Shown here piece after piece: positions 19,369 to 62,412 of a stretch of 64,000 nt of DNA. How positions within the stretch are numbered: position 1 is the stretch's first letter; every line of letters begins with the position of its first letter. The notes under the pieces were generated by a model. That model saw nothing but the letters and a program-made list of their open reading frames with translations, was not told the origin of the DNA and did no database searches. The DNA is from an uncultured virus (IMG/VR IMGVR_UViG_3300025133_000076) (lineage: Duplodnaviria > Heunggongvirae > Uroviricota > Caudoviricetes): IMG/VR virus record IMGVR_UViG_3300025133_000076; one strand, 5' to 3'. Both the position numbers and the translations under genes were made by a program.

Positions 19369-20329
19369 TTTGGACTCCCTGATTGAGATTGCGTGATATT
19401 CTCATGATACGATGCAACTTCGTTGATAAGTTATTAAAATTACTATATAGGTATAATTTATCCGGCACCGGTTCTTTAGTAAAAAAATGTTTAACCTGGT
19501 GTTGATCAACCGGACAGAATACCGAGCCCTGGGCCAGCTGGGCCGCCAATGTTGCAAGGCCACTATTTGATAAAAACAAATATTCACTACACGCAAGGTC
19601 ATTGAGGTCTCTCTTTAACTCATTAGTATCACCGACCGAGATTTTTACATTTTTAATAGTCAACAACTCTTTTAAGTCTTCCCATCGTTTTTTCTCTACA
19701 ACAATTCTAATATCTGGAACAATACGATGAGTACTACAAATCTTATTTATCACATTTATTAAATTTTTGTAGTACTCACATGGCCAGGCCCGGTTGTGCG
19801 CCTTGTGCCCCGGGTACGCCACGTCACCTCTCCGGACGTGTATAGAAAACCTATTTTTAATTAGGTTATTTTTATTGTTAGAATAATATATATTCCGAAT
19901 TCTCTCATGAGCCTTTTGAAAAACACTATATTGTTTCCGCTCCCATATTTGATAGGGGTATATTCTCGGAATTCCCGATAATTCAATTAACGTAGATTCT
20001 TTATTATTGCTTTTGTATATTCTGTTTATTTCATCAACCAGATCATTGACTGCATTTTTCGACATCCCTTTGTAATATTTGCCTTTATTGATTTTACAAC
20101 TGTTTTTAGTATTTGCTTTAGGTAAAACTTTGAATTTTAAAAAATCTTCTTTAGTAATAATGCTTAAAATCTGTCTGTCCGATATTCCCCAGGAATTATG
20201 ATAAACTATATTACAGCTTAACATTTCTGCCAAGATAAAGCAAGAGATTAACGTCTTCATCTGGTGCCCTAGTCTCCCGCCACTAGGTAAATCAATGGTG
20301 ATATATAAATTTTTATTTTCCAAATTCAT
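19355..20329 (-). CDS. Alpha-1,2-fucosyltransferase-like glycosyltransferase (GT11-like)
   Basis: GGRLGHQM, SIHVRRGD and SNSG motifs; start taken at ATG 20329, coupled to upstream stop. Confidence 0.75.
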   Translation of the reverse strand: MNLENKNLYITIDLPSGGRLGHQMKTLISCFILAEMLSCNIVYHNSWGISDRQILSIITKEDFLKFKVLPKANTKNSCKINKGKYYKGMSKNAVNDLVDEINRIYKSNNKESTLIELSGIPRIYPYQIWERKQYSVFQKAHERIRNIYYSNNKNNLIKNRFSIHVRRGDVAYPGHKAHNRAWPCEYYKNLINVINKICSTHRIVPDIRIVVEKKRWEDLKELLTIKNVKISVGDTNELKRDLNDLACSEYLFLSNSGLATLAAQLAQGSVFCPVDQHQVKHFFTKEPVPDKLYLYSNFNNLSTKLHRIMRISRNLNQGVQNEVS

Positions 20330-20936
20330 ACCCGAAATACTCAATGTCTTTTGCATACTTTTCCGCAACGATTTGACGAGTTTCGTCATCGTAGTATTCG
20401 GTGTAGTGTTTGTGTTTTGATTTGTTCGCCCATGGAAGCTGTTGCCGTGGAATTCCAATCTTGTTACAGGCGGCGTTGAAGTCTTCTTGGAGATTTTCAA
20501 ATCTAATTACATAATCAAGTTTATGACTTTTATATTTTTCTACATAGAAATAATCAGCACATGACCTTCGAGGTAGATTATTCATAAATCTTCTTTTATT
20601 AAAAGATTTAGGCCCTTTCCAAAAATAAAATGAAATAGCACGATCCCATGGATTCCTTGTCGCTCCAAGCTTGAAATAGTCTTCAATATCTCCATACTCT
20701 TCTCTCCATTTCGCGTAGTATTGATTTAATGTCGTATGCTTTTTTATTTTAAATTTTTCATCAGATGATCTAATTGCAAATCTATCTAGATAAGATTTAC
20801 TATCTATATTATATTGCGCTTGTTTTTCATTTGCTTCAATATTATCTTCAGAATATTCTACAAGGTAATTTTGTATAGAATTGCCTGCAGTTTTAGGTAC
20901 GTGTACAAAAATAAATTTATGTTTATGACTTATCAT
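20313..20936 (-). CDS. Sulfotransferase family 2 protein
   Basis: FIFVHVPKTAGNS, RNPWDRAIS, IRFENL, YYDDE...DIEYFGY. Confidence 0.85.
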   Translation of the reverse strand: MISHKHKFIFVHVPKTAGNSIQNYLVEYSEDNIEANEKQAQYNIDSKSYLDRFAIRSSDEKFKIKKHTTLNQYYAKWREEYGDIEDYFKLGATRNPWDRAISFYFWKGPKSFNKRRFMNNLPRRSCADYFYVEKYKSHKLDYVIRFENLQEDFNAACNKIGIPRQQLPWANKSKHKHYTEYYDDETRQIVAEKYAKDIEYFGYEFGK

Positions 20937-21661
20937 TTTTCATTCTCCAAATTCATACCCGAAATACTCAATGTCTTTTGCGTACTTTTCCGCAACGATT
21001 TGACGAGTTTCGTCATCGTAGTATTCGGTGTAGTGTTTTTTTTGATATTTTTTTGCGTGTGCTAATGAGTGATTATCACAGTCAATATTTATTGACTTAC
21101 AAAATTTTATCAAATCAGTATGTAAGTGGCGAAATCGAATCCAGTCTGTAATTATATTTTTACCATTATATATAACCCGTGAGGACAAGGTTTTATCCGG
21201 ATGGGTTTGTAACCAACTAGCAAACTCCTTTTTAGTTTCATTTCTATATATAGCCATATTATAGAACGATACAGCCCTGTCCCAACTGTTTCTTTCGTTT
21301 GCTACAAATTTATAATTTTTAAATTTTTCATAAGGGATTAGTTTAAACAATTGGCCCGCAGTCATATGGCCTCTTATACGAGCCCCGTTGTTCCCAATAT
21401 TTTGGTAATTTCTAGGTCGGTGGGATTTTGATTCAACGGGGAAGCATCTAGTTACAACATCGTTATCATCACAAAAGGGCTCTAGAAAATACTCCGTACT
21501 TGTCCCTGCGACTTTTGCCAACTTTATATATATGAATTTATGTTTATATGATATAATCATTTCTCATTCTCCAAATTCATACCCGAATGTCTCAATGTCC
21601 TTTGCGTATTTTTCCGCAATGATTTGTCGTGTCTCATCATCATAATATTCAGTGTAGTGTT
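20320..21661 (-). repeat. Three ~90-bp direct repeats encoding the sulfotransferase C-termini (~20320-20411, ~20946-21037, ~21570-21661)
   Basis: First two copies differ at one position by eye; third is more diverged. Confidence 0.85.
20940..21560 (-). CDS. Sulfotransferase family 2 protein
   Basis: FIYIKLAKVAGTS, RNSWDRAVS; shared C-terminus. Confidence 0.8.
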   Translation of the reverse strand: MIISYKHKFIYIKLAKVAGTSTEYFLEPFCDDNDVVTRCFPVESKSHRPRNYQNIGNNGARIRGHMTAGQLFKLIPYEKFKNYKFVANERNSWDRAVSFYNMAIYRNETKKEFASWLQTHPDKTLSSRVIYNGKNIITDWIRFRHLHTDLIKFCKSINIDCDNHSLAHAKKYQKKHYTEYYDDETRQIVAEKYAKDIEYFGYEFGE

Positions 21662-22163
21662 TCTTTAGAGCAGACACATTAGCCCTCCATAGGGGAAGGC
21701 TTGTGTTTTGCAAACCTATCTGACTGCAGACCCAAGCATAATCTCTTTCTTTATTCTCAAACTTTCCTATAAAATCAAGTTCTTCGTTTAATGTATTGAG
21801 ATAAACGGAATTGGGAATAGGGCTGCCTAATTTTGTTAAATCGAAACCTCCTCTTGGATCAAGCTCAAACTCATTGAACTTTTCAAGATATTCTCTTATA
21901 TTGATTTTGCCATCATGTATTTTGACTCCATAAAATGGAAATCTATTCATTGAGACGACTCGGGCCCAAGGATTTCTAACGAAAGAAAATTTAAAATAGT
22001 CATCCCAATGTTCTCTATATTTTTCTTTAGCACAAGAAGCAATGAGGTGTTTGTGTTTGAATCCGCAACTATTATTGGGCTTTCCAGAAATCCCTACCTC
22101 AATTGACGTTCCGGCTGTTCTTGGGATGTGTATAAAAATACATTTATATTTGTGATTTATCAT
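21564..22163 (-). CDS. Sulfotransferase family 2 protein
   Basis: IFIHIPRTAGTS, FVRNPWARVVS, IGKFE; shared C-terminus. Confidence 0.85.
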   Translation of the reverse strand: MINHKYKCIFIHIPRTAGTSIEVGISGKPNNSCGFKHKHLIASCAKEKYREHWDDYFKFSFVRNPWARVVSMNRFPFYGVKIHDGKINIREYLEKFNEFELDPRGGFDLTKLGSPIPNSVYLNTLNEELDFIGKFENKERDYAWVCSQIGLQNTSLPLWRANVSALKKHYTEYYDDETRQIIAEKYAKDIETFGYEFGE

Positions 22164-24007: not shown

Positions 24008-24385
24008 GGCCCATAAATAAAGAATAAATAAACCGGTTATAGTTTTCTGATAAGATCTAAAAGAATCTAAATAAATTAAAGTTTCGGTTAGTACTCAAGG
24101 TATATAATCTACTTTTCCCCTAAGAGTAAATAGATAAACCCCACAGGCATATAAACACACTTATATAGTTTTTATACATACCACACAGTAATTTAATTTT
24201 ATTTCCCCTATATACACAGGAAATAAAAGAAATAAAGAAATTAAGTGGAAAAAAGTGGGGGTAACGGTGGCAAAAACCGTGCCAACTTGCAAATGCCCGC
24301 AGATGTCATATAAGTGTCAACTTTATGTCAAGCCCTATTGTTGGCACGGTTATTGCAGGGAAGGGAACGGGCAAAACTTTTACAC

Positions 24386-24450: not shown

Positions 24451-25167
24451 ATGGGTTATAGATTGAAGAACGGAAAGTTGTTGGAGTGGTTCGCCACTCA
24501 AGAGATAGTCGAAAGAGGCGGTTTTCCCGCTGGTCAGTCCGGTCGCGGGCGCGAGTTCGTCGGAGCCGTCTACGGTTCGGTCGGAATGGACCTGACAAAC
24601 GAGACTGGAAACAAGGCCCAGTATCTCGTGGTGGGGCCGGACGGTGCCGAGCATCGTTTGGGCCGTGGCGAGCGGTTTGGGGATGCGATTGTTAGCACCC
24701 CGGTCGAGGGAAACACTTTCCTGGACCTTGCCTTCGTCAGCCTGAAAGGTGGCGACAGCCGCGACTTGACCACCGATGTTGAGTTGGCGCGACGGATTGT
24801 CGATGCTGGCCTTCCTCTCTGGGTTTGGACCCTGGAAGGCGATTGCCCTGATGCTGGAGCCGAAATCGAGAGGGGGGTTCCCTTCCACTTGACGGAGGCT
24901 CCCGCCGAAATCAAGGTCCGTCGAATCAACGTCACCCCTCTCCTTCGGGATATGATGGGCGACGACGACTGGCAGATGGGTCCACGGGAAGGCCGGACTT
25001 GCTTTGTCCGAGTCAACAAAGTTGGCAAGTACGTGTACCCCCGTTTGCGAGTGGTCTGGTCAGCAGTCCCAGAGCGATACTGGACGGACGCTGAAGCCAT
25101 CCCCTTCGCAGAGGCTTTCGCCACCATCACGGTGAAGGAGGCGGTCCAGCGAGCACTCTCCTACTAA
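24451..25167 (+). CDS. Hypothetical early protein (GC-rich)
   Basis: Promoter motif, GAGG RBS and downstream terminator. Confidence 0.75.
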   Translation: MGYRLKNGKLLEWFATQEIVERGGFPAGQSGRGREFVGAVYGSVGMDLTNETGNKAQYLVVGPDGAEHRLGRGERFGDAIVSTPVEGNTFLDLAFVSLKGGDSRDLTTDVELARRIVDAGLPLWVWTLEGDCPDAGAEIERGVPFHLTEAPAEIKVRRINVTPLLRDMMGDDDWQMGPREGRTCFVRVNKVGKYVYPRLRVVWSAVPERYWTDAEAIPFAEAFATITVKEAVQRALSY

Positions 25168-25183
25168 GCCGAACCCCCTACCC

Positions 25184-25230
25184 AAACCCCCTCTCCCTTC
25201 CGGGAGAGGGGGTTTGCTTTGTTTCTTTTT
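25184..25230 (+). terminator. Intrinsic terminator
   Basis: AAACCCCCTCTCCC-TTCC-GGGAGAGGGGGTTT plus T-tract. Confidence 0.8.
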
Positions 25231-25340
25231 TTAGTCATACACAAGTGAATACGTGTGTATGCCGGGCAAAAGATTGACAAACCTTTTGCAGCAGAATGTC
25301 AATCTTTTGCCCGGCAAAAACCTGCTTTGGTTTTCGCAAC

Positions 25341-25656
25341 TGCAATTTTCATGCCAATTATATTGGCATAGCTTTTGCAGGCGTATGCAAGTTTTGTGCC
25401 AACTTTGGGCAAAAGATTGACAAACCTTTTGGCACGGTTCTTGCATATGCGTTTGCCTCTTTTGGGCAAAAGATTGACAAGAGCATTGGCATGAGGCTTG
25501 CAGTGTTGCAATAAGTGTGCCAAAGCAATTGGCATGATTCTTGCATAAGAAAACTGATTTTCGATTGAGATTGGGCAAAAGATTTGCATTAACATGCGCT
25601 TGCAAGATTCGTGCCAACCTCTTCGCGTAGCCTCGCGCTGGGGCAAAAGATTTGCA
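25341..25656. promoter_or_regulatory. Array of sigma-54 (-24/-12) consensus sites
   Basis: Eight TTGGCA-N6-TTGCA sites (GG-N10-GC) at 25341(-), 25363(+), 25386(-), 25429(+), 25486(+), 25507(-), 25529(+), 25601(-); plus GGGCAAAAGATTTGCA at 25573 and 25641. Confidence 0.75.
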
Positions 25657-25773
25657 TACGCGTGCGCGGAGTTGGGGCAAAAGTTTTACAAGGGCATTTA
25701 CACTTTCATTTCTGCACCAACTATATCTTAGTGTAAGGAGGGATGCCCCCTCACTCTAACCCCCGAGGTCAAA

Positions 25774-26715
25774 ATGAGTAAAGAACGAATTAAGGAAACC
25801 TGCGAGACTATCGCCCTTCAGATTATCACGGCACTTGACAATCCGCCCGAAGATGGCACCCGATGGGTCATGCCATGGGATAAAAGTCTCGCTGGCGGTA
25901 TGCCGATGAATATTATCACTGGCCGGGCTTATGGAGGAAACTTCAACGGATTTATGCTGACTATGGCAGGAATCCAGTATGGCGACCAGCGTTGGGCAGG
26001 GTTCGGACAGTGGAAGAAAAGCGGAAACCTCGTCCGAAAGGGTGAGACAGGTACTCCGATTTTCTTCCCGAAGCTGGCCTGCGGCACCTGTGGCAAGCCC
26101 TGTGGTTTCGCGAAGAAGTGCAAGCCCTGTGGCGCGAACCTCAAGGCCAAAGGGGCCACGAAGTTCATCGGGTTTGGCAGTTCGTACACTTTCAACAACC
26201 AGCAGACGGTGAATCCATTGCCGACAGTTGACGTGAAAGAGGTTGACCCGAATGTGGGTTACGAGGCTGCGGCGGCACTTGTCGAAGGCATCGAGGCAGA
26301 CTTCCGCACGGGTGGAGCGAGAGCATTTTACTCCCCGCGTGAGGATTATTTGATGGTCCCGGCTCCCGGAGCCTTCCTGACTGTCGCTGACTTTTGGGCT
26401 ACGGTTATCCATGAGCACGGTCACTGGACCGGAGCAAAGGGCCGTCTCAACCGAAAGGGTATCACTGACTTTTCAGGGTTTGGTTCGGAGGCATACGCGT
26501 ATGAGGAGCTTGTAGCCGAGATTGGCGCAGCCTTCACCTGTGCCTACTTGGGAATCAAGCGAGAGGGTTTGATGGACAATCATGTGGCCTACCTGACCAG
26601 TTGGAAGAAGGCCCTCAAGGATGACCCGACCGTTATCCAGCGGGCCGCAAACGAGGCCGGACAGGTTATGCGCTACCTTATCAATAAGGGTGAGGGGTCC
26701 CGCCCGACCGCATGA
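25774..26715 (+). CDS. ardC: ArdC-like antirestriction / ssDNA-binding protein with zincin domain and Cys-rich insertion
   Basis: WVMPW, N..TGRAY.G.N, WAGFGQW...VRKGE, AFYSP..D, IHEHGHWTG, YAYEELVAEIGAAF, AYL.SW. Confidence 0.85.
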   Translation: MSKERIKETCETIALQIITALDNPPEDGTRWVMPWDKSLAGGMPMNIITGRAYGGNFNGFMLTMAGIQYGDQRWAGFGQWKKSGNLVRKGETGTPIFFPKLACGTCGKPCGFAKKCKPCGANLKAKGATKFIGFGSSYTFNNQQTVNPLPTVDVKEVDPNVGYEAAAALVEGIEADFRTGGARAFYSPREDYLMVPAPGAFLTVADFWATVIHEHGHWTGAKGRLNRKGITDFSGFGSEAYAYEELVAEIGAAFTCAYLGIKREGLMDNHVAYLTSWKKALKDDPTVIQRAANEAGQVMRYLINKGEGSRPTA

Positions 26716-26960
26716 CCGGGTGAGGTTTCGGGCCGGAGGAGCAACCCGCTCCTCCGGCCTTCTCTTGTTTTGAATGTCAAACTTTTGCCCAGAAGCACAC
26801 AAGTGTGCCCAGATTCTGGGCAAAAACTTTACATAAAGGCTGGCTCGTTTATTGTTTGCAAGAAGTATGCCAATCAAATATATTGGGCAAAAGTTTTACA
26901 AATACATTTACACTTCTATTTCTACACCGACTATTCTGTGGTGTAACCAAGGGAGATACC

Positions 26961-27224: not shown

Positions 27225-27230
27225 AACACT

Positions 27231-27345
27231 TTTTGAGGCAGCCGACCGACGTGGAGTTCGAACCTCCAACCCTTTGATGGGGGTACGCTAAGGGCCGTAT
27301 CGACTGGCAGCGGAAAACTGGAGAGGCCCCCTAAGGCTTCAAAGG
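27231..27345 (+). ncRNA. Candidate small structured RNA with a T-loop-like hairpin
   Basis: Closing stem TTTGAGGC/GCTTCAAA; GGAG-TTCGAAC-CTCC hairpin; GGGCC/GGCCC stem; terminator hairpin at 27353-27388. Confidence 0.4.
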
Positions 27346-27595
27346 AAGTACTGGAAGGGAGCGGTTAGGGCCGCTCCCTCCTCATTTTCCGGGCAAAAGA
27401 TTGACATTTGTTTGTAAAGCTTTTGCCCGAAGGGCTGGCACGCTTCTTGCATTTGCAAGAAACGGGCCAATGGCGTTAAGTATATTGGGCAAAAGTTTTA
27501 CAAATACATTTACACTTCTGTTTCTACACCAGCTATAACTTAGTGTAAGAGGGACAATCAAACTTTACCCTTTCCCCTCTTACTCGGAGAGACAA

Positions 27596-28039
27596 ATGTC
27601 CCAGACCCTAACCCCTACTGAAATGCTTGCACTCGCACAGGCTGTCCGGCTCAACGGCTGCAACGATGATATTGCCCTGCCTCCCAACTCGTCTGCATCG
27701 GTGTCCTTCACCGTAGATGTTTCGGGAGAGGTTGTCCGAGGCGAAGGCTCAAGCCGGGCCGGAACGAATCGGGCGCGTACCGCCGGAGCCATGATTATGC
27801 TCTTGGTTGTTAGCGGAGCGACTCGGCAGCACAGCCCAGCGAAGCTGATTGAGGCTTGGAAAACGTTCGGGACCCTTGATAAGAAGGCTATGGAAAGCCG
27901 TGTCGCAGCCCTCTCCAAAGAGGACCGAGACCTCTTTGAATCCTGCATGGCCCTATTCCAGTCAGAAATTGTGGATGCCCTGCCCCGAATCCCTGCGAAG
28001 GGTGGCGTGAAGTTCAAGGGTGAAGTGACGAAGGTGTAG
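27596..28039 (+). CDS. Hypothetical protein, paralog of 34532..34975
   Basis: MSQTLT...RAGTNRAR...PRIP.KG.VKF.G shared. Confidence 0.8.
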   Translation: MSQTLTPTEMLALAQAVRLNGCNDDIALPPNSSASVSFTVDVSGEVVRGEGSSRAGTNRARTAGAMIMLLVVSGATRQHSPAKLIEAWKTFGTLDKKAMESRVAALSKEDRDLFESCMALFQSEIVDALPRIPAKGGVKFKGEVTKV

Positions 28040-28195
28040 CCTCCCTGCACCGCCCCCGACCGGTTGTGGTGTCCGGTCGGGGGCCTTCGCCCTTGGGCAA
28101 AAGATTTACAAATAAATGTAAACCTTTTGCCCCGACGTGTTTACACTTCTATTTCTACACCGACTATTCTGTGGTGTAACCAAGGGAGTACACAC

Positions 28196-28642
28196 ATGCG
28201 AAACATCATTATGATTAGAGGAATCTCTGGGTCTGGTAAGACCACTTTGGCAAACCTGCTTTGTGCTGGAACAGGGGCCATCTCGTTGGCTGCTGATGAT
28301 TACTTCATCGGCTCTGACGGAGAGTATCATTTCAACCCAAGCCTTTTGCCGCAGGCACATGCGTATTGTCAAGCAAAGGCTGCCGAGGCTATGGTGGCTG
28401 GACGCAGCGTTGTCATTCACAATACCTTTGTTCAAAGGTGGGAGATGCAGGCGTATCTCGATTTGGCAGAGCAGCATGGTTATCGGGTGACTGTGGCCAG
28501 CACCTATGATGGCGGTTGTTCCAATGAGGAATTGGCCGCACGAAATGACCATGGCGTTCCACTTGCAGGCATTGAGCGTATGCGGGATAATTGGGAAGCT
28601 GATTGGAAGAGCGGCAATCCTCTCCCACCGTGGGAGAGGTAG
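28196..28642 (+). CDS. P-loop kinase (AAA_33 / polynucleotide-kinase-like)
   Basis: IRGISGSGKTT, AADDYF, VIHNT, RN.HGVP motifs. Confidence 0.8.
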   Translation: MRNIIMIRGISGSGKTTLANLLCAGTGAISLAADDYFIGSDGEYHFNPSLLPQAHAYCQAKAAEAMVAGRSVVIHNTFVQRWEMQAYLDLAEQHGYRVTVASTYDGGCSNEELAARNDHGVPLAGIERMRDNWEADWKSGNPLPPWER

Positions 28643-28905
28643 TGCGTGGAAGGCAAAAAACCTTGTGAAGGGCGCAGCCAAGTGTGGGCAGCCTATGCTT
28701 CATACAAGCACACAAAGCCTCAGCCAATAGCTTGATGGTCGAAAAATCCGACCATCAAGCCGGGCAAAAGATTTACATACATACATATGCGTTGGCATGA
28801 TTCTTGCAGGCAAAACTGTGCCAACCATTCTGGGCAAAAGATTTACACACATTTCCATTTCTATTTCTGCACCATCTATTCTGCTGTGAAAGGGAGGATA
28901 AGAAG

Positions 28906-31044: not shown

Positions 31045-31737
31045 GTGGAAAGAAACGGAATATATTACGCCGGAGACATTCATGGCGTTGCTGCATATGT
31101 TGCGGAGATTGACCGAAAAGCTATTGAGCATGGAATAGACATTGTTGTTCAGGTTGGAGACTTTGGATGCCACTTCGTTAAAAGCTGCCCTATTGTAAAG
31201 TATTTTGAGAAAAGAGCACGGCAGGACCGCCCCGGTCCAACTTGGTATACTTGTGGCGGAAACCATGATAATTGGCCAAAATGGTCCGAGATGGCCGAGG
31301 CTCAAGGTAACCCCCAGCTTGTAGAGCTTGCTCCCGGTTGTCACCTTGTTCCACGCGGAACCTCTATTGAGCTGGATGGAGTGAAGCATCTATTTTTTGG
31401 CGGAGCTGAATCTATTGATATAGGCTACAGGACAGAGGGCGTTGACTGGTGGCCTGAAGAATCTCCTTCCGTCGAAGAATTCAATAAATTCTTCGAAAGA
31501 ATGGAAATAGACCAGCCAGAGGTTATTGTTACGCATGAGGCCCCACTTTGTATTGAGTTGAATCGGCCAGGCCGAGAATCACAGCCCACCCCACGTAACC
31601 TTCAGAATATCCTGAAGCACAATGACCATACACCCGCGTATTGGTATTTTGGCCATCACCATATAAATAAAGTTTGGATGATTGATGGAGTTACTTTTTC
31701 ATGCTGCGGCCTGCATGGGGACGCGGTACTTGGATAA
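31045..31737 (+). CDS. Calcineurin-like metallophosphoesterase
   Basis: GDIHG, VGDFG, GNHD, THEAP, FGHHH. Confidence 0.85.
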   Translation: MERNGIYYAGDIHGVAAYVAEIDRKAIEHGIDIVVQVGDFGCHFVKSCPIVKYFEKRARQDRPGPTWYTCGGNHDNWPKWSEMAEAQGNPQLVELAPGCHLVPRGTSIELDGVKHLFFGGAESIDIGYRTEGVDWWPEESPSVEEFNKFFERMEIDQPEVIVTHEAPLCIELNRPGRESQPTPRNLQNILKHNDHTPAYWYFGHHHINKVWMIDGVTFSCCGLHGDAVLG

Positions 31738-33930: not shown

Positions 33931-34016
33931 TGGTACCCGAGGCCGGACTTGAACCGGCATGACCTATGGTCGAGAGATTTTAAGTCTCTTGTGTCTACCA
34001 ATTCCACCACTCGGGC
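33931..34016 (-). tRNA. tRNA-Leu (UAA)
   Basis: GCCCGAG...AGAGA-CTTAAAA-TCTCT, long variable arm, GTTCAAGTC, CCA end. Confidence 0.95.
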
Positions 34017-34531: not shown

Positions 34532-34975
34532 TTAGACCTTCTTTGCGGTTCCCCGGAACTTTACATAGCCCTTCGTCGGGATTCGCGGAATGTTATCGAC
34601 AATCTCGGAGTCGAATAGCGAGAGCATCGCCCGGTAGTTGGCTTGCTCATCTGCGGTCAAGGCCGATACATGGACCTCGACAGCCTGCTTTGACAGGCCG
34701 GACAGTCGGTTCCACAAGTCAACAATATGACTGGGGGCATACTCTCTGGTGCAGCCAAGCTCATGGAGCAACAGGCAGATGGTGGGGACAGAGCGGGCAC
34801 GGTTAGTTCCAGCACGATTGCTGGACGGGCCACGCTCTACGCTTCCCTCTACATTGACGGTGAAGTTGACAGAGGCAGCACTACTCGGTGGCAGCACTGA
34901 TTCGTCGTTTACATCCGACAGCTTGATAAGCTTGGAAAGGGCGATCATTTCGAGGTCAGTTAGGGTCTGGGACAT
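34532..34975 (-). CDS. Hypothetical protein, paralog of 27596..28039
   Basis: Shared motifs; own promoter motif. Confidence 0.8.
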   Translation of the reverse strand: MSQTLTDLEMIALSKLIKLSDVNDESVLPPSSAASVNFTVNVEGSVERGPSSNRAGTNRARSVPTICLLLHELGCTREYAPSHIVDLWNRLSGLSKQAVEVHVSALTADEQANYRAMLSLFDSEIVDNIPRIPTKGYVKFRGTAKKV

Positions 34976-35440: not shown

Positions 35441-35516
35441 GGGCCGGTAGCTCAACTGGTAGAGCATCGGACTTTTAATCCGGTGGTTGTGGGTTCAAGT
35501 CCCGCCCGGCTCACCA
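35441..35516 (+). tRNA. tRNA-Lys (UUU)
   Basis: Cloverleaf, anticodon loop CTTTTAA, CCA end. Confidence 0.95.
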
Positions 35517-36154: not shown

Positions 36155-36988
36155 ATGTATGTATTACTCCTTTACTCTATTATCTTTAGCTGGATTTTCA
36201 CCAGCGATGTAGCTCCGGCCGCAACGGGAGTTGACAGATGTTATATACGCGAATGTCTATGTGAGGTTCGTTCTGGGCCGAAGCCCTCCGCAAAAGTAAA
36301 GGTGGAAATAGAAGAAAGAACAATGTCTGTCTTTTTTGAGGAAGATAAATATTCTTTATCTAAAGATCAATTATATAGAATAAGTCAATTTTTTGCCCAG
36401 TTTAGAGGAGGGACTAATAGTGCCTCTATTATCGGATACACGGATGGGTGTGGTTCATATGAATATAATAAAGACTTATCGGCCCAAAGAGCGGAGGAGG
36501 TTTTCTCTATTGCAAGTAATTTCTTGAATGAGAATACTATCGGAAGAATTTCTGGTGGGGAAAAAAGCAATGGGCATTTAGATGAAGCGCGCAGAGTTGA
36601 TGTGGTTGTGCATACGCAGAGGCGCGTTACGACTGCAATAGAGAAAATCCCTGCTGATTTTTATCTTATAGATGCATCTGGCTCAATGTGGGATGGCTAT
36701 GAAGATTGGAACGATGTGGTCAACGCTTCGGTTAAGCCCAACAGCAAAGTGTTCCTTTCTATAATAGACGGGTGTCGTAACGGCAAGTACATGGCGGACG
36801 TGCGTCCGCATGGAGGCACCGAAATATGGTGGTCGTACTGGAATATTATAGATAGAATGAAACCAGGCCAGACACTTTTAATCGTTTCCGATTTTGAATC
36901 GCAAGTTCCTCTGTCTTCTCGGGAGGCGTGGCGAATAAGAGAAAAGGTGCGTCAGGCAGGAATTATTGTTCGTTCTATTTCGCCATGA
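36155..36988 (+). CDS. Secreted OmpA-C-like peptidoglycan-binding domain fused to a vWA-like domain
   Basis: Signal-like N-terminus; IIGYTD..G..EYN.DLSAQRA..V and RRVDV; LIDASGSM MIDAS, GGT, VSDFE. Confidence 0.75.
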   Translation: MYVLLLYSIIFSWIFTSDVAPAATGVDRCYIRECLCEVRSGPKPSAKVKVEIEERTMSVFFEEDKYSLSKDQLYRISQFFAQFRGGTNSASIIGYTDGCGSYEYNKDLSAQRAEEVFSIASNFLNENTIGRISGGEKSNGHLDEARRVDVVVHTQRRVTTAIEKIPADFYLIDASGSMWDGYEDWNDVVNASVKPNSKVFLSIIDGCRNGKYMADVRPHGGTEIWWSYWNIIDRMKPGQTLLIVSDFESQVPLSSREAWRIREKVRQAGIIVRSISP

Positions 36989-41930: not shown

Positions 41931-42095
41931 GCCATGTTATAGCTGCTGCAGAAATAGAAATAGAAAAGACTAATGGCGTTTGCCGGGCAAAAGTTTGACA
42001 TAATATTTGACAGGAATTAGACAATTTATGGCACAGGTTTTGCACCAGCTATTCTTCGGCGTAGGGAGTTTCCTCCCAATAAAGAAGGAGGTTTC

Positions 42096-42212
42096 ATGGA
42101 ATCATTGCTTATTATTGTTGGACCGCCGATTATGGCGAGCCTTTGGGTAGCTGCGGGGTTTATCGTAGGTCTTGAGTTAGCAGAAATGTACAAAGACATT
42201 AGGGGGATTTGA
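42096..42212 (+). CDS. Small membrane peptide (not in ORF track)
   Basis: AGGAGG RBS; 38 aa hydrophobic. Confidence 0.55.
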   Translation: MESLLIIVGPPIMASLWVAAGFIVGLELAEMYKDIRGI

Positions 42213-43129: not shown

Positions 43130-43369
43130 GGCAGACTCCTTTTCTTGATTAGCTCGGAGGACCATCCTCCTTGCACAATTGAATAGTTGGTGCAGAAACA
43201 GAAATGGATTTTCGCTGGGCAAAAGTTTAACATACCGATATAACCCACACTGGGCAAAAGTTTAACAAGTGCCATTTTATGTCCGTTAGATATTTTATGG
43301 CACGGATTTTGCATCAACTATTATTTGATGAGAGGACACAGTTCCCCCAACATTAGCCGGAGGTTTATT

Positions 43370-46444: not shown

Positions 46445-46521
46445 GCGCCCTTAGCTCAGCTGGATAGAGCATCGGCCTTCTAAGCCGAGGGTCACAGGTT
46501 CGAATCCTGTAGGGCGTGCCA
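46445..46521 (+). tRNA. tRNA-Arg (UCU)
   Basis: Cloverleaf, anticodon loop CTTCTAA, GTTCGAATC, CCA end. Confidence 0.95.
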
Positions 46522-48635: not shown

Positions 48636-48695
48636 TCAATTTATTTGGGCAAAAACTTTACAATTGGTATAATAATGCAAGATAAGGAGGTCGTT

Positions 48696-48875
48696 ATGAC
48701 TACAGTAGAGACTAAGTGGGAAGAATTAAAACAGACTGTCGCCAGTCTGGAAACTGATGTAACAAAGAATGCTAATGGCAATGCTGCAGCTGGACGAAGG
48801 GCCAGAAAGGGGTTGAGAGAGATCAAGGCTCAGGCCGGAGAGCTAGTGAAGCTAACTCTGGGAAAAGAAATTTAA
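48696..48875 (+). CDS. Histone H1-like (Hc1-type) small DNA-binding protein
   Basis: GNAAAGRRARKGLREIK signature; AGGAGG RBS. Confidence 0.7.
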   Translation: MTTVETKWEELKQTVASLETDVTKNANGNAAAGRRARKGLREIKAQAGELVKLTLGKEI

Positions 48876-54092: not shown

Positions 54093-54710
54093 ATGATTTC
54101 GGACAAATATAAATGTATCTTTATCCATATAGAGAGAACCGGAGGCACTTCTATAGAGCGTGCTTTATTTGGTATAACTTCGGACAAAGCCCCCCCTATA
54201 GACAAGGAGATAAAGCATCTTACCGCAAAAGAATCTCTTGAGCATTATGGTGAAGATAAATGGAATAAGTACTTTAAATTCTCTATCGTCAGAAACCCCT
54301 GGGACCTTGTGGTATCTAATTTCTTCTTCCCCTGGTTTCATGGGCCCGGCGATCATATTGACTTTAAATCTTGGGTTCAACAATTGAAGGCCGACTCCAA
54401 TAAGGTGATTAGCCACAAGAGAACCCCTCAGCTAAAGGCCGTAAGTATAAATGGATCGATCTCTATTGATTATATAATTAGATTTGAAACTTTAAAGGAG
54501 CAATGGGAGGAAGTCCGGTCTAAGCTTGGAGTAAGCTATTTACTGACAAATAATTGGAACCATAGGCTTAAGAAGTATAGTTATTTAAAAGATAGAAAGC
54601 CTTATCCTTATTATTATGATGATGAAACAATCTCTATTGTTGCCGAAAGGTTTAAGAGAGATATAGATTATTTTGGATATAAGTTCGGAGAAAATATAAA
54701 TAAAGTTTGA
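54093..54710 (+). CDS. Sulfotransferase family 2 protein
   Basis: IFIHIERTGGTS, VRNPWDLVVS, IRFETL, YYDDE...DIDYFGY. Confidence 0.85.
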   Translation: MISDKYKCIFIHIERTGGTSIERALFGITSDKAPPIDKEIKHLTAKESLEHYGEDKWNKYFKFSIVRNPWDLVVSNFFFPWFHGPGDHIDFKSWVQQLKADSNKVISHKRTPQLKAVSINGSISIDYIIRFETLKEQWEEVRSKLGVSYLLTNNWNHRLKKYSYLKDRKPYPYYYDDETISIVAERFKRDIDYFGYKFGENINKV

Positions 54711-60670: not shown

Positions 60671-60746
60671 GGGCCGTTAGCTCAACAGGCAGAGCAAAAG
60701 ACTTTTAATCTTTAGGTTCTGGGTTCAAGTCCCAGGCGGCTCACCA
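60671..60746 (+). tRNA. tRNA-Lys (UUU), second copy
   Basis: Cloverleaf, AAAGA-CTTTTAA-TCTTT, CCA end. Confidence 0.93.
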
Positions 60747-60753
60747 TTATTAT

Positions 60754-60831
60754 AGGGCTATAGCTCAATCAGGTTAGAGCAACTGCCTCATAAGCAGTAG
60801 GTTCTCGGTTCAAGTCCGAGTAGCCCTACCA
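60754..60831 (+). tRNA. tRNA with CAU anticodon (Met or Ile2)
   Basis: AGGGCTA/TAGCCCT acceptor stem, loop CTCATAA, CCA end. Confidence 0.92.
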
Positions 60832-61599: not shown

Positions 61600-61675
61600 T
61601 CCCCTGTAGCTCAGTTGGTAGAGCAGATGACTGTTAATCATCGGGTCGTTGGTTCAAGTCCAGCCGGGGGAGCCA
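61600..61675 (+). tRNA. tRNA-Asn (GUU)
   Basis: Cloverleaf, loop CTGTTAA, CCA end. Confidence 0.95.
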
Positions 61676-62336: not shown

Positions 62337-62412
62337 GCCATCTTAGCTCAGTCGGTAGAGCAGTTGCTTTGTAAGCATCAGGTCGTCAGTTCAAGTCTGA
62401 CAGGTGGCTCCA
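62337..62412 (+). tRNA. tRNA-Thr (UGU)
   Basis: Cloverleaf, loop TTTGTAA, CCA end. Confidence 0.92.

Follow-up and report, generated by a model that had tools for sequence, protein, structure and literature searches.

We analysed a 64,000-nucleotide stretch of DNA (hereafter the window) from the uncultured virus record IMGVR_UViG_3300025133_000076, in which an array of short sites resembling the -24/-12 promoter element of sigma-54 lies upstream of an ardC-like gene. This gene (25774..26715, + strand, 313 amino acids) encodes a product with the ArdC domains ArdcN (3.8e-18) and MPTase-PolyVal (6.9e-37) and is assigned by PHROG as an 'anti-restriction protein'. It is preceded by a noncoding gap of 606 bp that extends from the stop of a gene for a 238-amino-acid protein (25167) to the ardC start (25774), and the open reading frames (ORFs) that cross the array resemble those of relatives only through the repeated motifs. 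In order, the gap holds the terminator of the upstream gene, an inverted repeat, a pair of G-boxes, eight -24/-12-type sites with four further G-boxes among them, one more G-box, a phage-type promoter-like core that we refer to as class A, and ardC. The G-box is GGGCAAAAG, always followed in the window by nTTnACA.

The terminator of the 238-amino-acid gene (24451-25167) is intrinsic and strong, with a 15-bp stem and then a T-rich tail (25183..25216, +). The 5' edge of the array is marked by the inverted repeat CATACACA-N10-TGTGTATG (25236..25261), a possible candidate binding site for an upstream regulator; a repeat of the TGTGTA/TACACA type is equally placed in relatives (e.g. at ~2640-2668 of contig L012), where it reads TGT-N10-ACA. 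Two inverted G-boxes (GGGCAAAAGATTGACA) occupy 25264..25312, one on the + strand (25264-25279) and one on the - strand (25297-25312). Each strand has four of the eight exact TGGCA-N6-TTGCA sites, which lie inside 25341-25616 (276 bp) and are all preceded by T, giving TTGGCA. The first, TGGCATGAAAATTGCA (25341..25356, -), is the divergent partner of TGGCATAGCTTTTGCA (25364..25379, +), which is itself convergent with TGGCACAAAACTTGCA (25386..25401, -). Two complete modules on the + strand follow, in each of which the G-box and the site are offset by 23 nt from start to start: the first (25407..25445) consists of a G-box at 25407-25422, 7 nt and the site TGGCACGGTTCTTGCA at 25430-25445, and the second (25464..25502) of a G-box at 25464-25479 and the site TGGCATGAGGCTTGCA at 25487-25502. 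The next site, TGGCACACTTATTGCA (25507..25522, -), is convergent with the site at 25487 and divergent with TGGCATGATTCTTGCA (25530..25545, +). A G-box variant, GGGCAAAAGATTTGCA (25573..25588, +), which is itself of the form GG-N10-GC, precedes the last site, TGGCACGAATCTTGCA (25601..25616, -), which is unpaired and points away from ardC. Two more G-boxes (25641..25690, +) are found at 25641-25656 and 25675-25690, the latter being the upstream box of the ardC promoter, whose class A core TTCTGCACCAACTAT is at 25710..25724 (+) and is one of 30 copies in the window. Downstream of the class A core, the ATG close to the Shine-Dalgarno (SD) sequence opens a frame of 12 codons (25743-25781) that overlaps the start codon of ardC; the aligned relatives do not share it.

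In total seven G-boxes, six on the + strand and one on the - strand, are interleaved with the sites between 25264 and 25683. A pattern scan against shuffles bears out the dense, two-strand array of eight sites and seven boxes that a preliminary description of this DNA had reported. The same description had offered a simple tandem duplication as an alternative, which we rejected: there has been no recent duplication of this kind, since the units are just 60-77% alike and the part that they have in common is the letters of the motifs. In contigs from four sequencing runs the array is identical, or carries one difference that lies outside the motifs.

Over the whole window there are 14 exact TGGCA-N6-TTGCA sites, whereas 0.20 are expected (shuffles: standard deviation 0.49, maximum 3), and all 14 are intergenic. 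Nine of them have a gene downstream in the right orientation and at promoter distance, two of these as hybrids with an SD sequence and ATG. The further single sites listed in the preliminary description are all present, those at 24342 (+), 26857 (-), 27436 (+), 28793 (+), 42029 (+) and 43298 (+) being exact and that at 27454 (-) a TGGCCC variant. The site at 24342..24357 (+) faces the 238-amino-acid gene, 50 nt upstream of its class A promoter, and a one-off site is found at 24269-24284 (-). Downstream of ardC, the next gaps keep the gap order with fewer sites. The gap 26716-26960 holds an exact site at 26857-26872 (-), which abuts a decayed + site, TGGCTCGTTTATTGTT, at 26841-26856, itself 23 nt downstream of a G-box (together 26841..26872). 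The gap 27225-27595 holds a convergent pair (27436..27469) formed by the exact site at 27436-27451 (+) and the TGGCCC variant at 27454-27469 (-), with the centre TTGC-ATTT-GCAA; in one contig from another seawater sample (run X7) 6 nt are missing at the centre of this palindrome (27447). The gap 28643-28870 holds one + site (28793..28808), which faces a gene, is flanked by two G-boxes and lies upstream of a class A promoter at 28865. The two hybrids are CCAGCTAT (42029..42052, +), in which TGGCAC-N5-TTGCA is fused to the downstream half of a class A promoter and is followed by an SD sequence and an ATG at 42096, and TGGCACGGATTTTGCATCAACTAT (43298..43321, +), followed by an SD sequence and an ATG at ~43371 and present as the same hybrid in a relative, G001. 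In both, the -24/-12 element is joined in register to the class A downstream half (TGGCAC-N5-TTGCAyCAnCTAT).

The letters of the element were compared with those of sigma-54 sites. In all 14 window sites the GG and GC doublets are ten bases apart inside TGGCA-N6-TTGC, and in all 14 TGGCA is followed by a pyrimidine (Y) and then a purine (R), two positions that lie outside the search pattern. Among 182 unique sites from 38 sources, which were selected with a pattern holding the GG/GC core and match the core by construction, Y6 is found in 179 and R7 in 181; T precedes TGGCA in 151, T9 is found in 145 and T10 in 149, Y11 is strongly preferred, and position 16, restricted to A or T by the pattern, is A in 141 and T in 41. 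The resulting consensus is tTGGCAYRnTTyTTGCW. A hand count of two positions in the 29 intergenic Salmonella sigma-54 sites from chromatin immunoprecipitation on chip in Table 3 of PMC3844500 gave Y6 in 28/29 and R7 in 29/29; several of the promoters listed there (rpoH, pspG, hydN) are set apart from phage sites by no more than a few spacer letters. Wherever a position is informative, the sites therefore follow the sigma-54-type consensus proposed in the preliminary description, and this holds too for Y6/R7 and for the T-rich spacer, of which that description had made no use. The two blocks never swap, the first always being TGGCA and the second always TTGC, and this implies two distinct reading surfaces, as in sigma-54.

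The sites are also held in a fixed architecture. Among 204 unique sites a G-box starts exactly 23 nt upstream in 50 and 21, 22 or 24 nt upstream in 15 more (65 in total), and 112 have no G-box within 70 nt. Taking 293 unique G-boxes as the starting point and reading the 16-mer that lies 23 nt behind each, we find a match to the core at 9/9 letters in 46 cases, at 8/9 in 2 and at 7/9 in 1, and at 0-6 letters in all others. Partner arms were scored without any sequence requirement: with a 4-nt gap between TTGC and GCAA, 82 of 202 sites have a perfect convergent partner and 9 a one-off partner (~45%), with none at 7/9, and at a 6-nt gap 17 of 202 (8%) have a convergent partner. Divergent partners are found at 6- or 7-nt gaps, with 20 and 22 perfect cases. 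The convergent pair with the 4-nt gap is a rigid 34-bp palindrome, TGGCAY-N5-TTGC-N4-GCAA-N5-RTGCCA, and continuous arrays have a repeat of 40-41 bp, about four helical turns (e.g. positions 900-1013 of contig L067).

Upstream of ardC, all 20 distinct versions of the region carry at least one site, the range being 1 to 8 with the window as the maximum. The sites facing ardC outnumber the reversed ones by 60:33 in these 20 regions, which are related, so that the counts are not independent. The site nearest to ardC faces it in 16/20, and the three single-site versions all face ardC. Orientation is a bias and not a rule, since the unpaired sites of L067 oppose the downstream gene, and the sites cannot all drive ardC, as had been pointed out before.

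IMG/VR contains one relative, G001, a linear record of 223,402 bp (CheckV 67%), whose ArdC is 82% identical to that of the window and whose upstream gene product is only 33% identical. Its ardC gap holds three tandem G-box-N14-TGGCAY-N5-TTGCA units facing ardC and one reversed partner with TTGCT, followed by a G-box and a diverged class A core. In all 223 kb there are 13 TGGCAYR-N4-TTGCW sites, all of them at 34.3-52.4 kb, and none for the reversed control pattern. Metagenome contigs scanned for the composite pattern gave 73 rows, representing 71 loci, and 36 of these loci, on 32 contigs, have 3 to 14 sites each (14 in 3.7 kb in L067, 13 in L077 and 11 each in L041, L055 and L064); L012 has 7 sites against 0.03 expected, and two syntenic relatives, L022 and L030, have 2 sites each. 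About 30 single-site loci, which look like chance matches or ordinary bacterial promoters, were omitted from the counts. The array is not unique to the window, since such sites are carried by G001 and at least 32 marine metagenome contigs; conservation in related phages was a check that the preliminary description had proposed. Near-identical DNA is found in sequencing runs labelled marine or seawater metagenome. Among viral contigs, the 16-mer GGGCAAAAGATTGACA gave 11 single matches, one in G001 and the others treated as chance, and the composite pattern gave G001 only, plus two matches in coding-looking sequence that were taken as chance. Searches with blastn of cultured phages and plasmids gave a trivial 101-nt match or nothing, and tblastn of two structural-region proteins against INPHARED gave no match.

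Most relatives are syntenic, with the 238-amino-acid gene, the array, ardC, a small gene, the gene for a 147-amino-acid protein and a P-loop kinase-like gene in this order. Their ArdC proteins fall into two groups, ~82-88% and ~55-60% identical to that of the window; over all relatives the identity is 55-88% for ArdC and 26-34% for the upstream gene product. When the diverged ardC gaps are aligned, the conserved columns are only the G-boxes, the TTGGCAYR...TTGC blocks and the promoter, and the order that recurs is terminator, G-box, site array, G-box, phage-type promoter and gene. The -24/-12 letters are constant across clades while the other two elements drift, the G-box from GGGCAAAAG to GGGCAAAAC and GGGCAATAG, the form that diverged relatives have in its place, and the class A core from TTCTRCAYCRNCTAT through a CATCGGTTAC-type sequence to TTTCTCCACCAGTTAT. 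Contigs L077 and L041 are ~98% identical through the array as far as the ardC start, beyond which their ardC alleles differ (82% and 55% identical to the window's ArdC). This junction is a mosaic joint at the cassette, as in the promoter-early stem-loops (PeSLs) of T4-type phages, and loose ends are seen at promoter repeats in other samples. The stretch in the window is the most amplified known example of this cassette in an uncultured marine large phage family.

The G-box and the class A core are repeated elements in their own right. There are 42 G-boxes in the window, all within 25264-50867, against 0.84 expected. They are found upstream of promoters, downstream of terminators and as palindromes with a 16-bp stem, and perfect G-box palindromes are located at 27391/27428, 28095/28132, 33589/33626 and 41575/41613. 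We rejected a sigma-70 reading of the TTGACA in the G-box, there being no -10 element 16-18 nt away, and also an IHF-like or Fis-like site, for which there is just a partial likeness to the consensus sequences that leaves nine invariant letters unexplained. For the class A core TTCTRCAYCRNCTAT, 0.18 copies are expected and 30 are present, of which 27 are exact and 3 differ by one letter; they span 24392-63122 (e.g. 25710, 26920, 27522, 28153, 40856, 60361 and 63108), with an extended consensus of ~35 nt, ttcACTTCTaTTTCTrCAyCAnCTATtctgtgGTGTAAg. An SD-like sequence and a start codon are found at most 70 nt downstream of 27 of the 30 cores, and many copies have a G-box 33-37 nt upstream. This position suggests that the class A element is a promoter, probably of the class served by one of the phage family's own sigma factors. 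A sigma-70 promoter could not be recognised at the cores, as TTCTRCAYCRNCTAT has no -35/-10 pair at 16-18 nt, and the six sites returned by a sigma-70 scan (2.5 expected) do not coincide with any class A core.

Our best explanation of these data, to which we assign a probability of roughly 45%, is that the elements are binding sites for the host sigma-54 polymerase in modular promoter cassettes that act in cis and are amplified in the window; that sigma-54 is the binder in one role or another we judge to be, on balance, probable. According to this model, one to eight near-optimal -24/-12 elements, many of them 23 nt behind GGGCAAAAG-nTTnACA, would be placed between the terminator of one gene and the next phage-type promoter, and the host sigma-54 RNA polymerase would sit on them as stable closed complexes. 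There would be two kinds of core promoter with the G-box in common, the -24/-12 module and the class A core, the former lying upstream of the latter or fused to it. Gene-facing copies would serve as extra, activator-gated or 'poised' promoters for the genes with which the small-ORF region begins (the 238-amino-acid gene, ardC and the three after it), together with the two hybrid promoters at 42-43 kb. Reversed copies would be palindrome partners, the palindrome holding one polymerase in either orientation. More copies of the unit would give higher occupancy, and a by-product may be a drain on the host's small sigma-54 pool. A role in cis is proposed because of the 23-nt phasing, the bias towards genes, the existence of one-site versions and the fusion to promoters at 42029 and 43298. 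We infer sigma-54 as the binder, and likewise the closed complexes, their firing and its timing, from the DNA sequence. Judging by their letters, such consensus sites would be bound by the holoenzyme in any sigma-54-bearing host. For E. coli, the ChIP-seq study PMC4591121 describes 135 sites occupied by sigma-54 as transcriptionally inactive holoenzyme, and binding without transcription is therefore normal for sigma-54.

Several observations weigh against this explanation. Of the 14 sites in the window five point away from any gene, as do 33 of the 93 before ardC, and the unpaired sites in L067 point opposite to the gene downstream. Palindromes with a 4-nt gap and divergent pairs with gaps of 6-7 nt are typical of dimeric DNA-binding proteins and not of sigma-54 promoters, and, to judge from known footprints, one palindrome would not hold two holoenzymes at once. 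Neither a PF00158 activator nor a sigma-54 domain was found in the window ORFs of at least 50 amino acids, and neither the activator nor a sigma-54 DNA-binding domain in the six frames of G001 (~67% complete); the activator expected of sigma-54-dependent promoters was thus not found, both genomes being incomplete and a host activator being possible, and the repeat at 25236-25261 and the G-boxes are candidates for its upstream site. Because the search pattern for the relatives included the motif, the presence of a site on every contig and some of the offset-23 count follow from the selection, which does not hold for the other sites. A scan of genome contigs with the composite pattern gave 23 single matches in unrelated taxa, none with three or more sites, and identified no host, and no RNA run is listed among the sequencing runs with this DNA.

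Some of these points would be expected if the sites were bound by a phage-encoded or other non-sigma-54 DNA-binding protein, which is the most serious rival, though we think it unlikely. The palindromes and half-sites would be operators or enhancers of a dimeric regulator of phage-type promoters, and the likeness to sigma-54 sites would reflect convergence, or mimicry that lets the protein also occupy host sigma-54 promoters. A protein of this kind would suit the rigid geometry of the convergent and divergent pairs (gaps of 4 and of 6-7 nt), the 40-41 bp periodicity of the arrays, the phasing to a second, phage-specific box, the strong preference for T9, T10 and Y11 in the spacer and the failure to find an activator gene; the hybrids, which swap the upstream half of the promoter for the motif, would be comparable to a class-II-type activator site. 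However, an unrelated protein is very unlikely to coincide with sigma-54 at 10 fixed letters and also at Y6, R7 and W16, and two 5-bp blocks that never swap would be read by different surfaces, as in sigma-54. The motif is constant between the clades in which the G-box and the promoter core drift, none of the ~110 window ORFs has a DNA-binding domain by Pfam or NCBIfam, and sigma-54 would be expected to occupy such sites anyway in a host that has it. The preliminary description had also named an NFI-like protein, but its TTGGC-N5-GCCAA site is absent from 25168-25773.

The preliminary description itself took the array for a sponge, the sites soaking up host sigma-54 or its holoenzyme in trans and shutting its regulon, with the proximity to genes being incidental. 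The sigma-54 type of the sites stands, but the stand-alone decoy is doubtful, the array being an amplified module found in many gaps of the family; a titrating side effect is possible, and as the explanation of the array we consider the sponge improbable. It would be in keeping with sites of consensus strength that have a T-rich tract before GC, with their high density in both orientations, with a plastic copy number (1 to 8 before ardC, up to 14 in 3.7 kb) and with the lack of an activator gene among those found, and the tens of sites per replicating phage genome might be a large sink in comparison with the 135 sites mapped in the whole E. coli genome (PMC4591121). What a sponge does not need is the fixed 23-nt phasing to the G-box, the gene bias (60:33, with the nearest site facing ardC in 16/20), the versions with one site (3/20) and the fusions to promoters before genes, and its sites are spread over several gaps upstream of promoters instead of forming one locus. 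For the other role suggested at that time, an RNA polymerase-loading platform near the leading end, the data offer no support for a 'leading end'.

Somewhat less probable again is a purpose-built trap, in which the phage would lock the host sigma-54 or its holoenzyme, without an activator, on arrayed 34-bp palindromes with a phasing of four helical turns. Each palindrome consists of two consensus -24/-12 elements with 4 nt between their TTGC ends and, as a cruciform in supercoiled or replicating DNA, would present a duplex promoter with an unpaired loop at its end, placed exactly at -11. This would be fork-junction DNA, the form that sigma-54 holds most tightly. If the trap were real, the host sigma-54 regulon would be silenced (stress, RNA-repair, motility or quorum circuits) and core polymerase would be parked beside the promoters of the phage's own sigma factors. 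The least probable reading, that the array serves only as nucleic-acid structure (cruciforms or hairpins, or RNA hairpins such as N4-type virion RNA polymerase promoters, T7-type RNase III sites or protection of mRNA ends) or as recombination cassettes, would accommodate the fold of the array as a single strand (-62 kcal/mol, z -5.3, 0/200 shuffles equally good), the roughly half of the sites that lie in 15-16-bp palindromes with a 4-nt centre, the large window ORFs without a recognisable family (1539, 1070, 894 and 842 amino acids) and the mosaic joint in regulatory DNA (L077/L041), but unpaired sites retain the full 16-nt motif (24342, 25430, 25530, 25601, 42029 and 43298), the stems keep their sequence without co-variation and their arms are often mismatched at YR and in the spacer, the hairpins are not followed by a T-run, no Rfam family was found (sub-threshold mir-266 and rnk leader only, both rejected), and there is no signal of a T7- or N4-type polymerase (PF00940 control silent), the 894-amino-acid ORF having no PDB sequence match.

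As to the phage as a whole, its DNA points to an uncultured marine large phage that would use the host core polymerase with its own sigma factors. G001 encodes two proteins of the sigma-70 family, each with regions 2 and 4, and gave no match to a T7-type polymerase (PF00940 control silent) or to a terminase family. The window has very few recognisable protein families. It carries seven tRNA genes, for Leu-TAA, Lys-TTT (twice), Arg-TCT, Met, Asn-GTT and Thr-TGT (33931-34016, 35441-35516, 46445-46521, 60671-60831, 61600-61675 and 62337-62412), and in the tRNA region a P-loop kinase-like gene (28064-28642) and a metallophosphoesterase (31045-31737); one may speculate that these form a counter-defence set against tRNA damage. 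The 147-amino-acid protein has two copies, at 27596-28039 (+) and 34532-34975 (-), that are 48% identical, and the family is found in all syntenic relatives. Its AlphaFold model (pLDDT 81, pTM 0.48) has no fold match in the PDB (best E 1.2), and a search of the ESM Atlas with the 147- and 238-amino-acid neighbours of ardC gave no usable lead. Four ORFs of the sulfotransferase family lie at 20313-22163 (-) and 54093-54710 (+), three of them adjacent on the minus strand. There are also a 76-amino-acid protein with a histone H1-like Hc1 domain (48645-48875) and an OmpA/Pal-like peptidoglycan-binding protein (36155-36988), and the latter, together with the strong use of SD sequences, suggests a Gram-negative host.

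Phages redirect host transcription through sigma-70, anti-sigma factors and sigma factors or polymerases of their own, and to our knowledge sigma-54 is hardly present in this picture of takeover. Searches of open-access text turned up no paper that describes sigma-54 site arrays on a phage, nor one that describes a sigma-54 decoy. Here, a widespread family of large marine phages has tens of consensus sites in a fixed architecture, with no visible activator, in an anti-defence or early region, and this conserved cassette is unexplained by known sigma-54 biology. If sigma-54 binds, the cassette would be a new viral way to use or to disable the enhancer-dependent polymerase, and a compact natural element (~40 bp per unit) for the study of closed complexes that are packed, paired and phased. 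If a phage protein binds, it would be a regulator that copies the specificity of sigma-54, which is also unreported. In either case the promoter grammar of an uncultured phage group is defined by the G-box, the class A core and the -24/-12 module.

Compared with known sigma-54 sites (consensus TGGCAC-N5-TTGCW), the phage sites are alike in core letters, spacing, the Y/R preference and the A or T after TTGC, but they are far denser (eight in 276 bp, up to 14 in 3.7 kb) and lie on phage DNA, in rigid convergent or divergent pairs that are phased to a phage-specific box, and about a third face no gene; unlike at sigma-54 promoters, neither an activator gene nor a recognisable enhancer was found for them. 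Use of sigma-54-like promoters has been reported for the Pseudomonas phage YuA (bioRxiv 10.1101/2023.10.13.562163, citing Ceyssens 2008). YuA, a lytic phage, resembles the window phage in having a sigma-54-like promoter region next to conserved phage-specific promoters, and differs in having a single such promoter, with no known arrays or palindromic pairs; the two phages are unrelated. The eukaryotic and adenoviral NFI site shares TTGGC with the phage element, but the phage arms are 24 nt apart in convergent pairs and read GCCAA-N5-7-TTGGC in divergent ones. The window is closer in organisation to the PeSL cassettes of T4-type phages (PMC4122927): composite terminator or stem-loop and promoter motifs are repeated before most small ORFs in a hyperplastic region (here 30 cores and 42 G-boxes, 24-51 kb), the G-boxes form palindromic hairpins, and the cassette is a point of genetic exchange, with the mosaic joint at the ardC start. 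In contrast, the core in the window is not a sigma-70 early promoter, and PeSLs are not known to carry sigma-54-type sites. By the two proteins compared, the window phage is unrelated to T4. In E. coli, the locus datA is a natural site of titration for DnaA. As the array may do, datA brings together high-affinity sites for a single host protein, whose free pool could be lowered in this way, but datA is one dedicated locus, whereas the phage sites are parts of promoter cassettes, for which an effect in trans is putative.

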